NCBI GenBank assembly: GCA_018400815.1
Contig: JAGYLS010000039.1
Span: 1-16,419, forward strand
Reading direction: 5' to 3'
Length of the DNA stretch: 16,419 bases
Origin: Candidatus Oleincola secundus
GTDB taxonomy: Bacteria > Atribacterota > Phoenicimicrobiia > Phoenicimicrobiales > Stramentimicrobiaceae
Part shown: positions 3,365 to 11,304 of the stretch, piece by piece
How the letters are laid out: each line of letters opens with the position of its first letter
How positions within the stretch are numbered: position 1 is the first letter of the stretch
Program-made: the position numbers and the translations under genes
The notes under the pieces: model-generated
The model's input: the letters and a program-made list of their open reading frames with translations, nothing else
The model's database searches: none
Told to the model about the DNA's origin: nothing

Positions 3365-4495
3365 TTAAGCGGTTTGGGCTACCGAATTTGACTCTATTGA
3401 AACATTCTCTAAAACAAAGTTAAGGAAATTATCGGCTAACTCCATAGCATCAACTACGGAGCAAGCTATCGAATTATCCTTGGATATATAATGGACATTT
3501 TTACCTGGAAGCATTTTCTCACAAAAAACATCAACAAATTGTCTGTCTTCTTCACATAAAGTTCTTAACCATTTATCGGCAACATCAAATTTATCACTGG
3601 TATAATAATTTTTTCTGTGATCTTTCCTCCAGCCAGCAACACGAAAATCCTGAAGTTCTCTTTTTCTGTCAGCCGAAGCGGTATTCAAAACATCTATTGC
3701 TTTTTTAACAATAGGACAATTTTCCGTCGTGTATAAGATGCCCGACGAAGATAAATTTTTCGATCCTACTATACTACACTTTTTAGAAATAGGAGAAAGA
3801 GAAATTTTTTCGGAAGAAAAAGAACATGAGCGATTACGATCGCTCGTAGTATTTGCGTTTTCTATGTTATTTCTTAGCTTAGTATTAGTATAGTCGGGTA
3901 TCTTATACCCGACGGTCGGTACGTAGAGGGCTAAGCTAGTACCTCTGGAGCACGACGCGTCGGGTATCTTATACCTCACGATTTTATTGTCAATGAAATC
4001 CCTGATATCATCAATGTCTGCGCCTTTTAAGAATTGGTTTTGAACAAAAACACTTTCCCCTTTATGATTTTTTGTTTTAGCTTTTGTAAATTTATTCATT
4101 CCTTCAGCCACATACATGAACAGCACCAAAGGATGATCGAGATTCAACTCATAGGTGTATATTTGCCGATTGTAAGCTAGCCCCCCTCTCCACCTATAAA
4201 CAATTTCCAATTTATCCAAAAGTTCTAAATGATTTTTTATGCTTTTAATATTTATATTGGGAAGCTCCTCATGCAGCTCCACAGCACTTTTATAAAAATG
4301 ATGTTTCTTCTTGTTTTCTCGACATTTTAAATCAAACCAGTATTTCAGTTGATATAAAACAGCGCAAGCATCGGAAGAACTATTTATTTTAAATTTTGGT
4401 TTGATTTGGGTGATATAGGTGTGTAAAAGTTTTATAGTTGCAGTGTTGGTCAGCCGGAAGCCGAAAGCAGCTTCCTCCAAAAAATTAGTGTCCAT
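3365..4495 (-). CDS. Phage replication initiator protein (N-terminal winged HTH, lambda O/RepA-like)
   Basis: 'VLYQLKYW...FYKSAVELHEELPNINIKSIKNHLELLDKLEIV...YNRQIYTYELN' resembles the wHTH of phage initiators; internal iterons; adjacent to DnaB; SD AAAGGA. Confidence 0.8.
   Translation of the reverse strand: MDTNFLEEAAFGFRLTNTATIKLLHTYITQIKPKFKINSSSDACAVLYQLKYWFDLKCRENKKKHHFYKSAVELHEELPNINIKSIKNHLELLDKLEIVYRWRGGLAYNRQIYTYELNLDHPLVLFMYVAEGMNKFTKAKTKNHKGESVFVQNQFLKGADIDDIRDFIDNKIVRYKIPDASCSRGTSLALYVPTVGYKIPDYTNTKLRNNIENANTTSDRNRSCSFSSEKISLSPISKKCSIVGSKNLSSSGILYTTENCPIVKKAIDVLNTASADRKRELQDFRVAGWRKDHRKNYYTSDKFDVADKWLRTLCEEDRQFVDVFCEKMLPGKNVHYISKDNSIACSVVDAMELADNFLNFVLENVSIESNSVAQTA
3726..3979. 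repeat. Putative replication origin: three 21-bp palindromic iterons inside the initiator gene
   Basis: GTCGGGTAT-CTT-ATACCCGAC (3893-3913, perfect 9-bp IR); 3959-3979 direct copy with 2 mismatches; 3726-3746 inverted copy with 2 mismatches; hairpin GAGCGAT-TACG-ATCGCTC (3828-3845); AT-rich stretch ~3858-3892. Confidence 0.75.
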
Positions 4496-7558: not shown

Positions 7559-7736
7559 TTAACTCCTTATCTTTAACATTATAATAAATAATTTCAGCCA
7601 CACATAAAATAAATACAAGTATAAAAGGTATAATTATCGGGAAAAAAACCCAAAACCAACTCCAGTCTATAGTATTAGTCACTTTTAAGACAAAAAACAA
7701 CCATGCGTTGTAAAATAAAATTCTAAAAATTTCCAT
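7551..7736 (-). CDS. Small membrane protein ('LKxxxxIDWSWxWVxxP' phage family)
   Basis: Two hydrophobic segments around 'LKVTNTIDWSWFWVFFPIIIP', a motif I recognise from small phage transmembrane proteins. Confidence 0.7.
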   Translation of the reverse strand: MEIFRILFYNAWLFFVLKVTNTIDWSWFWVFFPIIIPFILVFILCVAEIIYYNVKDKELNG

Positions 7737-7784
7737 ATTTACTACACCCTTTCTTTATTTAAATTAATAAGGATTATTTTTAGG

Positions 7785-8014
7785 CTAACCAAAACAACAT
7801 TCAATCTTATCAATAGAAATATCTTCTAATACTTCTGAGTCTTTAATATATTGTTCATCAACAAGATAAGCACTAATCATATCACAAAGCTCGCCTAAAT
7901 TAATTTTAATTAACCTTGTTTTTCTATAATTACCATCTTTAATATAAGCTCGTACTGTTCGAGCTCTGTTTTATGCCTGTTTTCCAATAACTTTTCTAAA
8001 GTGTCTTTATCCAA
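7785..8014 (-). pseudogene. Possibly frameshifted ~76-aa gene after terL
   Basis: TTG 8014 frame (MDKDTLEKLLENRHK...) stops after 34 codons; the -1 frame (NRARTVRAYIKDGNYRKTRLIKINLGELCDMISAYLVDEQ...CCFG*) is open to 7785. One extra A in an A-run would join them. Confidence 0.35.
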
Positions 8015-8015
8015 A

Positions 8016-10058
8016 TTAAATACTATATTTTTTCTCCCAATCCTCCCATCTTTGTTTTAATGAGCGCCTTCCTCTTGATAATTGCCAATGCGCCGGTCTG
8101 TTACCGGAAGACGGCCTATTTGATTTATCGAAGCGCCCTCGTCTTTTGTTGGTATCTGTAGTTTTCATTTTAAGCATTTCTCTTAATGTAACTGGTTTCC
8201 CTTTTTTGTTATAAGTAGCTTTTCTTTGCGAAAGCCGATATACACATCCAGCTATGGCATCGGCAACATCCTTTTCAGAATTAATATCATGGTCTATTTT
8301 GCCGGTAGCCATATCCTGCTTCAGCCCCTTAACTTCACTTTTTATCATTTCATTTTCGGGCAGCCAAAGCCTTGATTCAGATAAAGAAGTTTTCATTTCG
8401 ATATAAGGGTCTGGCTGTTTGTCCACAGATTGCCTTGCGGTGGCTATCCCAACTTTTCTCAACATTTGACTGATAGTTGTGCTGTAAGCAAAATCGGCTG
8501 ACCATGAATCTAAATTTGTCAAATGCTCTTTAAGCGCAAAGAACATCTCCCATATCTTTTCCCTTTTAATTTCACCTTCCAGCGGTGGCACTATTTTTAA
8601 TAACCCAAATATTACATAAATAGGCGCAAAAGCCTCCACTTCCTTTTCAAATTGTTCTTTTTCTTCGTTGAATACATTTTTAGCACTTACAATTTTAGAC
8701 CCCATAGCAGCCCCGATGGCAATACCGGAATTATCTGTATGAAGGGATAAATCGTTATGAGAATGAAACTTTCCATAATTATTAATAGCTTCAATAAAAG
8801 GAATATTAAAAAGACTTTTCAAATTATTTACCTGATTAATATCCACTTCAAATGTGTTGAATATTTGGCTAAACCCATAAAACGCTTCATATTTCTCAAA
8901 GTTTTCAATTAAATAACTTGAGGGTATAAATTTAGAATCTCTTAAAATAGGTTTTCCGGCCACTTCCTGTATAGCTTTAGCTAAATCATCTTCAAAAGTG
9001 TCCAACATTTCAATAGGGATTTCTATAATATCATCGTCCATAGGCCGGGGTTTTTTCTTAAATACCCTTCCCGCACTTAATTCATTAGGAGGCTTCACCC
9101 AAAACTTTTTGCCTGAATATTTATCAGTATCTTTAACCTCCCATAAAGGATAATCGACAACATAAATATAATCTACTTTTTTAGCCTTTTTCTTTCGTGT
9201 TTGGGTAAAATCTTCACTATGATTGGCTGATGATGCCAAATACAACTTTCCCGGCCATTCCCCTGTAGCAAAATTTTCAAATTGGTATTTAATTCTTGCT
9301 TTGATAGCATTGTAATTTTCAGTAGCTTGATCTACCCATTTACCATCTTCTTTGCTTCTTATAGTTTTCATAAAATTGGCTTCATCAATAAAGCCAGAAA
9401 ACACATTTTCTGAAATAGCGGCTGTAGAAGTAGCCGGAACAGGATTAACTTTTATATTATTAGGGAAAACAGCATAATTCTTACCTTTTAATGGAAAATG
9501 GTTATTAAAATAATCTGAAGCCGTAACCATCCCTTTAAATTCTTGGAAGTTTCGTACTGCCTTTATTTCTTTTACAGATTGCATAATAAAAACAATCTCT
9601 GACCCAGGAGCCAACTCATAATGGATTTGAGGGCTATAAAGACAACTTAATTTATAAACATGATAAGCAAAAGCGCAGCAAGCCAAATAAGTTTTCCCTA
9701 TTCTCAGACCCCCTGTCAATACTACTTCATAACAATTATTTTTAGACCCAAAAATATTTATAAGTTCTTCAAGTATTTTAGGCCTTATGGTATTACTGAC
9801 ATTAAGATATTCTCTTCCAAGTAAAAATTCTTCAATATCTACAGGCTGTACTCTGTACCCTGTTTTTAATGCCGCTTGCTGCTTTCCAAATAGCTCTAAA
9901 AAATCAGCTCTTGGTATCTTATCGCCATAAATTTCCTGCATCTTGTAAACTTGCCCAATCATTGCAGTTTTAAATGTATTAGGCAAGTTATATTTAACGG
10001 CTATTTCATTTATATATCTGTTTAAGGTTTCGGCTGATACAAATTTTTTCATAATCAT
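8016..10058 (-). CDS. terL: Terminase large subunit
   Basis: Walker A 'LTGGLRIGKT', Walker B 'GFIDEANF', coupling motif 'LASSA', nuclease 'HNDLS' and 'KIDHDINSEKDVADAIAG'. Native start reassigned to ATG 10058 (or 10052) because the 15 upstream codons lie inside the IS end. Confidence 0.9.
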   Translation of the reverse strand: MIMKKFVSAETLNRYINEIAVKYNLPNTFKTAMIGQVYKMQEIYGDKIPRADFLELFGKQQAALKTGYRVQPVDIEEFLLGREYLNVSNTIRPKILEELINIFGSKNNCYEVVLTGGLRIGKTYLACCAFAYHVYKLSCLYSPQIHYELAPGSEIVFIMQSVKEIKAVRNFQEFKGMVTASDYFNNHFPLKGKNYAVFPNNIKVNPVPATSTAAISENVFSGFIDEANFMKTIRSKEDGKWVDQATENYNAIKARIKYQFENFATGEWPGKLYLASSANHSEDFTQTRKKKAKKVDYIYVVDYPLWEVKDTDKYSGKKFWVKPPNELSAGRVFKKKPRPMDDDIIEIPIEMLDTFEDDLAKAIQEVAGKPILRDSKFIPSSYLIENFEKYEAFYGFSQIFNTFEVDINQVNNLKSLFNIPFIEAINNYGKFHSHNDLSLHTDNSGIAIGAAMGSKIVSAKNVFNEEKEQFEKEVEAFAPIYVIFGLLKIVPPLEGEIKREKIWEMFFALKEHLTNLDSWSADFAYSTTISQMLRKVGIATARQSVDKQPDPYIEMKTSLSESRLWLPENEMIKSEVKGLKQDMATGKIDHDINSEKDVADAIAGCVYRLSQRKATYNKKGKPVTLREMLKMKTTDTNKRRGRFDKSNRPSSGNRPAHWQLSRGRRSLKQRWEDWEKKYSI

Positions 10059-10872
10059 CTGCGAAGAAACCACTATCCCTTTAGGGTAGTGGAGGAATCG
10101 CACCTTCTTTCTATTATTAAATTTTTACGTTTACTTATAATATCTAATTTCTTATAGTTAGCTGATTTATGAATTGTGGTTCCGTCTAATTTTCGTAAAT
10201 CGAAATACCCACTGCTTCTTCTTCCAAAAATAAAACATTCGATATTATCATATTTAACTTTATCAAACAGTCTATATCCTTTGACTATATACGGAGCTTG
10301 ATTGAGTTTCTTTTTACCACCCTTTGTGATATTGGCTTTATGAATTTGTCTATTATGACATCTAACTTTTTTAATATAATACCAATTATTTAATTTTTCG
10401 ACGAGCGGATTGCCGGTTATACATAAAGCATCAATCCTATGAGATTTAGGAAGATTGTTTTTAATCCGGGTGTTCTTGGTGATGTAACCAAATGTCAATT
10501 CTACATATGGCGTTCTTTTAACTACATTCGCTTTACCTTGTTTTAATAGTTTTCTTGCTGTTCGTGGTTTACACGGCATTAACGGTTTTTTGTGTTTGTT
10601 AATAACATAGACTAGCATATAGTCTATCTCCTTTCAGAGTTATTAGCCATCGACAATGTTATAAAGGCTTGTCTTGCAAAGCACACCGTTTCTTACTCTC
10701 AAAACTTTTAATACTTTGCGATAGAGCTACAGACTTGGCTAAACATCCGTAGGTATCATGACCTAAACAACGTAGTTGGAAGTATTTAAGACTCCCAACT
10801 GAGTCTAATCAACCAGGCTTTTTTGGTATTTCTACCTCAAGCTCCGAACCTTTAGGTTCGTGAGTTGTTGAC
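10059..10872 (-). mobile_element. Non-autonomous IS200/IS605-family IscB (ISC/OMEGA) element, internally deleted
   Basis: Starts GTCAAC (10872); subterminal hairpins with identical CCTAAAGG apex at 10842-10864 and 10070-10092; contains omegaRNA and an iscB derivative; no tnpA; 3' flank ATGA. Boundary uncertain by 1 nt. Confidence 0.88.
10073..10618 (-). CDS. iscB: IscB derivative (PLMP/RRXRR N-terminus fused in frame to RuvC-III and C-terminal domain); lacks RuvC-I, bridge helix, RuvC-II and HNH
   Basis: 'MLVYVINKHKKPLMPCKPRTARKLLKQGKANVVKRTP' joins directly to 'YVELTFGYITKNTRIKNNLPKSHRIDALCI...HNRQIHK...GYRLFDKV...FIFGRRSSGYFDLRKLDG'; no GIDxG, RRxRR helix or CxxC/HNH; SD GAAAGGAG. Confidence 0.88.
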   Translation of the reverse strand: MLVYVINKHKKPLMPCKPRTARKLLKQGKANVVKRTPYVELTFGYITKNTRIKNNLPKSHRIDALCITGNPLVEKLNNWYYIKKVRCHNRQIHKANITKGGKKKLNQAPYIVKGYRLFDKVKYDNIECFIFGRRSSGYFDLRKLDGTTIHKSANYKKLDIISKRKNLIIERRCDSSTTLKG

Positions 10873-10892
10873 AAAAGTTTATCCAAAAATCG
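10630..10892 (-). ncRNA. omegaRNA (HEARO-type) scaffold with 5' guide derived from flanking phage DNA
   Basis: Minus strand GTCAAC..hairpin..GCTTG...GTTGATTAGACTCAG...CTACGTT...GGATG..CCAAGTC..GCTCT...AACATTGTCGATG, the conserved HEARO/omegaRNA motif series; guide ~10873-10892 (CGATTTTTGGATAAACTTTT). Confidence 0.85.
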
Positions 10893-11066
10893 TTGACTTA
10901 TTTCGTATTGATTAAAAACCTTGCCGCATAAAGGACACACCCCGCAATCTTCATAGCAAGGTTTATCCCCGAAAAATCCTACAAAATCACTTTTGATTTG
11001 AATATTATACTCCCCACACTCACAAGGTATGTCTGAGTTATAAATAATAAAGCTATTTGTATTCAT
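10809..11066 (-). CDS. Zn-ribbon protein whose last ~20 aa are contributed by the inserted element
   Basis: CECG and CPLCG motifs; native sequence ends at ...FLDKLL (10873); 'STTHEPKGSELEVEIPKKPG' is read from the IS end. Confidence 0.7.
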   Translation of the reverse strand: MNTNSFIIYNSDIPCECGEYNIQIKSDFVGFFGDKPCYEDCGVCPLCGKVFNQYEISQRFLDKLLSTTHEPKGSELEVEIPKKPG

Positions 11067-11067
11067 G

Positions 11068-11304
11068 TCAATTAATATCCTTTTTATCTAAATGTTTGAC
11101 CATTTCAGCATAGTAGGCTGTATGGATTTTTTCTTCCATTTTTAGTACTAATTCGTCTATCATTTTCAGCCCAATTAAATGTGAAAACAGTTTGCATAAT
11201 TGGCTACCATCAAACTCTTTATAAAGCGCATGAGTTAATTCATTACATTTTTTACATTGATTTCCTTCATCAATTTCTTTTCCGCATAAAGTACATTTTG
11301 GCAT
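11068..11304 (-). CDS. Small Zn-finger protein
   Basis: CTLC...CKKC at the N-terminus; SD GGGGAG; tight packing. Confidence 0.7.
   Translation of the reverse strand: MPKCTLCGKEIDEGNQCKKCNELTHALYKEFDGSQLCKLFSHLIGLKMIDELVLKMEEKIHTAYYAEMVKHLDKKDIN

Follow-up and report, generated by a model that had tools for sequence, protein, structure and literature searches.

The window, our term for the whole 16,419-nucleotide stretch of DNA that was analysed, carries on its reverse strand an 820-bp insertion (10053..10872) that we regard, with a probability of roughly 0.85, as an ordinary non-autonomous ISC derivative. An ISC2 element, an IscB-encoding member of the IS200/IS605 family, would have inserted 5′ of the ATGAA with which a predicted terminase large subunit gene (terL) begins, and would subsequently have lost approximately 700 bp of its nuclease gene. 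Four features of the element are established, namely its ends, an intact omegaRNA, an in-frame deletion, and the identity of its target with a start codon. The element type, the ATGA target and the cleavage of empty sites have been published before; what is added here is the pattern in which related insertions separate genes from their start signals, and a short motif at the foot of the end hairpin that covaries with the target.

Protein family matches to capsid, maturation protease, DnaB and thymidylate synthase genes identify the window as a phage contig, which has been assigned to a genome bin that is 86% complete. The element DNA matches nothing among annotated phages, and a comparison with plasmids returns seven distant iscB records. 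Another contig of the same bin (C35), also from a phage and encoding a polymerase, a primase, a portal protein and RNR, holds a pseudogenised iscB element and an omega element that is devoid of a gene (7640-9323 and 32290-32661; loci L007, L006, L309 and L310). The two contigs may belong to the same phage, given piece depths in run X1 of 22-30 for C35 versus 26 for the window.

The iscB remnant and its relatives

The only ORF inside the element is an iscB remnant, an open frame of 181 aa (10073..10618, reverse strand) recognised by RRXRR and guided_IscB matches and by alignment to IscBs. Its PLMP/RRXRR N-terminus and conserved C-terminus mark it as an IscB-family ORF, and its score of 71.8 bits against guided_IscB (NF040563), which falls under the 175-bit cut-off, marks it as a defective derivative. 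Alignment with 13 full-length IscBs (66-75% identity) reveals that the N-terminal PLMP part is joined in frame, near Pro37 (10510-10508), to the RuvC-III/C-terminal part, with approximately 237 codons deleted in frame after Pro37. The deleted segment presumably comprised RuvC-I, the bridge helix, RuvC-II and HNH. Judged from this frame, the IscB copy is nuclease-dead and homing in cis is excluded, because approximately 237 residues that include the catalytic domains have been deleted. Full-length sibling elements measure 1491-1612 bp. The same deletion is absent from the nine loci compared, seven of which were inspected and all contain full-length frames. Likewise, the 86%-complete bin contains no intact IscB, and its other iscB copy carries 11 stop codons.

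Other hallmarks of ISC2/IscB elements are present, including an omegaRNA that lies upstream of iscB and begins at a GTCA terminus, and a subterminal 3′ hairpin situated 17 nt from the target. This arrangement resembles that of the ISC2 transposons of Kapitonov, Makarova and Koonin (2016; PMC4810608), where ISC2-1_HM, ISC2-1_MS and also ISC1-1_MA have an N|ATGA target. Both have the 5′ GTCA end, the subterminal hairpin, no transposase, and an iscB placed behind a conserved RNA, and the insertion 5′ of ATGA reported for ISC2 is likely for the window element too. Unlike ISC2, the window element has an internally deleted iscB, resides in a phage, and has a start codon as its target, a term that the main text of the ISC2 paper never uses. 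No Y1 transposase is encoded in the element, and the Y1 transposase matches of the bin all lie on other contigs, none with ends similar to those of the element. By analogy with the family, insertion would have been carried out by a Y1 transposase supplied from elsewhere and guided by the TTTC at the hairpin foot.

The predicted terminase and its translation

The predicted TerL (8016..10052, reverse strand; 678 aa) is likely a terminase large subunit. The protein itself has no direct family match, and 16 of 28 aligned relatives match the terminase large subunit family phrog_2 (best E value 2e-10); capsid and protease genes are located nearby. A search with the single protein returned nothing in viral contigs, and only one match, at 28%, among 40 related genomes. 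Members of this terminase family that carry inteins with homing endonucleases were also encountered (P0005, P0015, P0042-P0044 and P0049-P0052), indicating that the terminase gene is a repeated target for selfish inserts. Homing endonucleases occur in introns and inteins of phage terminase genes. The window element resembles these in being a selfish insert at a conserved packaging gene that would cut the empty allele, but differs in being RNA-guided, outside the coding sequence and non-splicing, and in having a dead nuclease.

Relatives of TerL begin with MKK or MNK, which corresponds to the second of two in-frame ATGs, at 10052. The other ATG (10058-10056), which the first-pass annotation had adopted as the start, is contained in the 17-nt tail of the element. 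The stop codon of the iscB remnant lies 14 and 20 nt upstream of the two ATGs. No Shine-Dalgarno sequence is present in the element end, wherein the sole GGGA is paired within the hairpin, and only 1 of 85 sibling ends supplies a Shine-Dalgarno as strong as -6 kcal/mol. Ribosomes probably reach TerL by re-initiating once they have passed the remnant stop, 20 nt before the start, or else by binding in the AU-rich tail. Re-initiation would be the likeliest route, and the siblings show no sign of selection for it. In 16 of the 85 siblings, the iscB stop lies no more than 5 nt from the target ATG or overlaps it, and several have the TGA of the target itself as their stop.

These features could also mean that the remnant is itself under selection as a leader frame, such that translating ribosomes open the hairpin at the element end and start again on terL, thereby replacing a coupling that the insertion broke. 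The sequestered GGGA, the spacing of the stop, the scarcity of Shine-Dalgarno sequences in sibling ends and the coupling of terL to an upstream gene in relatives all agree with this proposal, as does an in-frame deletion that leaves 181 codons free of stops, compared with the stop-ridden iscB elsewhere in the bin. However, a deletion is in frame by chance one time in three, and this one may be young. Moreover, siblings that precede a long ORF do not differ from the others in the distance from stop to ATG (p 0.37), and three of the four gene-less ends of the TTTC type that precede long ORFs have open frames of fewer than 40 codons entering the end. We consider selection on the remnant rather unlikely. 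If a dead remnant were shown to drive terminase translation, it would provide a modest example, accessible to experiment, of dependence of a phage on a transposon relic. According to the reading we prefer, the deleted ISC2 derivative would today be a passenger, dependent for any activity on an IscB provided in trans.

The rebuilt junction and the predicted guide RNA

The ORF that precedes the element is small and Cys-rich (10809..11066, reverse strand); it encodes 85 aa as it stands, reading 20 codons into the omegaRNA, and 65 aa in the rebuilt empty site. The earlier claim that excision of 10059-10872 restores a DKLL-stop end to this 65-aa ORF, with its stop and the terL start overlapping as ATGA, is correct, and the overlap survives our correction of the element end, as removal of 10053-10872 likewise leaves DKLL-stop overlapping the terL start at 10052. 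The same coupling had been noted for dnaB, whose start (5997) does overlap the stop of ORF 6143-5994 as ATGA. The small ORF is an accessory, lineage-specific insert between a conserved 78-aa gene (11068..11304, reverse strand) and terL: a homology search with its 64-aa form returned only itself, and the 65-aa ORF is found in none of the related terminase loci compared. An atlas offers unnamed viral proteins of 60-63 aa at 0.92, which we note as a lead.

In related phages, homologues of the 78-aa gene lie directly against the terL start or overlap with it, and in more distant phages they are coupled directly to terL. One locus (L094, 71%) has an ATGA overlap between this homologue and terL, another (L095, 65%) has an ATGA overlap with a different ORF, and further loci (L015-L020, L101, L102, L103 and L107) exhibit a TTGA overlap or an abutting stop between the homologue and terL. 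Since coupling of stop and start is the norm at this position in relatives, the rebuilt overlap is plausible, and the original insertion site was probably a stop/start overlap. For ISC elements, Kapitonov et al. (PMC4810608) report N|ATGA targets and, in some Firmicute families, cutting at GT|GA. Cutting at GT|GA would count against an ATGA empty site and would yield GTGA, which would still form a stop/start overlap.

Four sequencing runs contain the stretch. The element is present in X1, X2 and X4, which represent two samples of one study (P1), one of them possibly the source of the window, and contigs of the four runs contain no joint between the flanks without the element. The X2 word share of 0.86 equals the value expected of an empty allele, but this is a coincidence, as X2 contigs carry the element; the listed X2 pieces leave 10033-10066 uncovered, a gap that proves nothing. 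No RNA dataset is among the listed holders of the stretch. In X3, from another study, a terL relative that lacks the element was found (11 differences in 653 bases, approximately 98%), but its upstream DNA differs and the empty junction is not seen. This relative matches exactly up to 10052 and then continues with 202 unlike letters, a TAA abutting its ATG; the small Cys-rich ORF is present there for its first half and then diverges, nothing joins the left flank even at 80% likeness, and the guide target is absent. The ancestral junction is thus a reconstruction, because upstream DNA differs in the only close relative that is free of the element. The hairpin spacing and the covariation of end motif and target fit an insertion 5′ of ATGA that duplicated no target, with the empty allele itself not observed.

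The omegaRNA scaffold (HEARO, RF02033; 10639..10872, reverse strand; 124.8 bits) matches model positions 1-211, the full model, and is therefore intact. Its predicted 20-nt guide (10873..10892, reverse strand) is flanking phage DNA from the 3′ end of the small Cys-rich ORF, the position following from the omegaRNA match and the guide role from what Meers et al. describe for GstIscB (bioRxiv 2023.03.14.532601). As predicted for the window element, ISGst5/GstIscB takes its guide from the flank and has a TAM (TTCAT) that reads ATGAA when seen on the coding strand, and both elements point the same way as the gene upstream of them. Meers et al. (bioRxiv 10.1101/2023.03.14.532601) report such a co-orientation bias and show that IscB cuts the empty donor joint, an activity that the intact stage of the window element would have shared. 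GstIscB is active; the window copy, devoid of RuvC-I/II and HNH, has gone some way towards a gene-less element of the PATE type. Following the family pattern, an intact stage would have relied on read-through transcription to yield the guide from the flanking gene, and IscB would have cut empty alleles into which the element was then copied back.

The first-pass annotation had attributed to the element this attack on empty alleles, like that of a homing endonuclease. Such cleavage is the published function of the family (bioRxiv 2023.03.14.532601), but it is neither new nor supported for this copy, given its missing catalytic domains and a bin that contains no intact IscB. The guide followed by ATGA has no target in its own genome or in any fetched locus, and viral contigs contain no exact match to the guide. 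It is conceivable that the omegaRNA is taken up by a full-length IscB, encoded by the host or by a phage infecting the same cell, which then cuts element-free terL alleles and drives the element through the phage population. A scaffold complete at full model length would permit this, the rebuilt site would be an exact match to the guide followed by ATGAA, full-length IscB relatives are common in phage contigs, and the element is found, with no empty joint, in each of the three P1 runs. Nevertheless, we think homing in trans unlikely, as the bin has no intact IscB and its other iscB copy is riddled with stops, the target is missing from everything searched, including the X3 relative, and the three runs amount to just two samples from a single study, of which one may be the source itself.

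End motifs, target code and sibling insertion sites

The left end of the element (10053..10092, reverse strand) comprises a hairpin (10092-10070), a TTTC foot motif (10069-10066) and the 17-nt tail, and is followed by ATGAA (10048..10052), which is both the target, or TAM, and the terL start codon. The hairpin foot lies 17-22 nt from the target in relatives, and the two ATGs of the window lie at 11 and 17. We compared 160 sibling loci, 80 genomic and 80 viral. A strict hairpin rule gave 32 rows, or 31 unique tails, in which ATGA lies mostly at 17-19 nt and never at 11. A looser rule gave 104 tails, with ATGAA in 70 and ATGAT in 5, but it admits only spacings of 15-23 nt and favours ATG, and so is partly circular. 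An independent sample, selected by the hairpin core alone from 80 of 86 viral loci, contained 25 end-type hairpins, and again none has ATGA at 11. The annotation was right to place the element at the terminase start, yet its alternatives of an 814-bp element ending at 10059, so that terL would start at the first ATG, or of an 813-bp excision that fuses the small ORF in frame to TerL, both of which yield readable junctions, are very improbable in view of this spacing (0 of 31 and 0 of 25 relatives), the start of TerL relatives at the second ATG, an X3 relative that lacks the six bases concerned, and the absence of any fused form among 52 TerL matches (lengths 374-1190 searched).

The right end is a GTCAA at the 5′ start of the omegaRNA, and sibling 5′ ends are alike; a profile search with nhmmer, which agreed with Rfam in 19 of 21 cases, replaced a regular expression that agreed in 12 of 21. 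A second GTCAAC occurs 25 nt beyond this end (10897-10892) as a possible alternative excision boundary. We rejected it, since the Rfam match begins at 10872 and only that copy continues in the manner of the siblings.

Among the 25 core-selected hairpins, those with a TTTC foot have ATGAA at 17-22 nt in 12 of 12 cases (one of these rows was tallied by script as ATAA at 15, and has ATGAA at 20 as well), and those with a TTTT foot have ATAA in 13 of 13. The window foot is TTTC. The C35 elements have a hairpin core identical to that of the window, but TTTT feet followed by ATAA. Four bases at the hairpin foot therefore predict whether the target is ATGA or ATAA, which permits the TAM to be predicted from sequence alone. 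Rows outside this tally (loci L323-L402) pair CTTC with GTGA (2) and CTTT with GTAA (4).

The proposal that ATGA serves as TAM and target is upheld by this covariation and by related IscBs. The TAM of GstIscB, TTCAT, is the reverse complement of ATGAA (bioRxiv 2023.03.14.532601), and eight rows in supplementary file 8 of PMC13180657 share the motifs of the remnant, of which four have an ATGA TAM, one has RTGR and three have none, such that four of five measured TAMs are ATGA. PmeIscB (Petrotoga mexicana), EoxIscB1, HfmIscB-1 and MgmIscB1 share C-terminal motifs with the remnant and have a measured ATGA TAM, and, unlike the remnant, these proteins are full-length and active (PMC13180657). By eye, the PmeIscB row there looks nearly the same as a Petrotoga relative (P0149) that is 67% identical to the C-terminal part of the remnant over 138 aa. 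From these relatives, the TAM of the window element would be ATGA(A).

Both ends and sufficient flank could be called in 47 loci including the window, which gave 45 unique sibling junctions from the 160 loci; loci without a called end or flank were dropped. Start codons account for 21 of the 45 rebuilt sites, compared with 156 of 1537 background sites, which are the ATGA sites of like orientation within these flanks (odds ratio 7.7, p 1e-9), with classes assigned by our own simple ORF rules and several non-independent loci per genome. The enrichment appears in both viral (13/28 versus 94/939) and genomic (8/17 versus 62/598) sets, is stable under other thresholds, and persists when gene-internal sites, which include 14 of the 45, are removed from both classes (21/31 versus 156/404, p 0.002). 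In 22 of 45 cases the site lies behind a Shine-Dalgarno at least as strong as -6 kcal/mol, compared with 162 of 1537. True stop/start overlaps make up 3 of 45 versus 12 of 1537 of all sites, but among starts they are not enriched (3/21 versus 12/156, p 0.39; p 0.19-0.39 with other thresholds included), and we reject a specific preference for overlaps. The habit of the family is to land at starts, usually between the ribosome site and the ATG, and overlaps are a subset of these.

The suggestion that ATGA steers such elements to gene junctions is borne out as an enrichment at start codons and not at overlaps as such. The idea that coding sequence is thereby spared finds no support: the upstream ORF runs 20 residues past the point where its stop used to be, and the insertion severs the downstream gene from its ribosome site or coupling. 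Approximately half of the sibling insertions come between a gene and its ribosome site or the stop to which it was coupled, and the element ends rarely bring a new Shine-Dalgarno. Landing at start codons would most likely reflect three filters, namely the ATGA target, the loss of insertions that break genes, and a need for co-orientation within a transcribed operon. The literature searched, whose coverage excludes two founding papers, contained no report of this separation of starts. One might go further and propose that ATGA-targeting IscB elements habitually park between ribosome sites and start codons, that this phage domesticated a dead remnant as the leader of its essential terminase, rendering the element irremovable save by precise excision, and that the guide RNA still arms foreign IscBs against empty alleles; as a whole we find this doubtful.

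Two further observations concern the rest of the window. A weak match to caiA RNA (434-507; 29.8 bits against a cut-off of 55.5), located downstream of the capsid gene and including a hairpin at 468-500, is probably a terminator-like chance match. In addition, three 22-nt repeats with inverted copies (3724-3980) lie inside a DnaD-like ORF of 376 aa (3365-4495), and could represent a replication origin.
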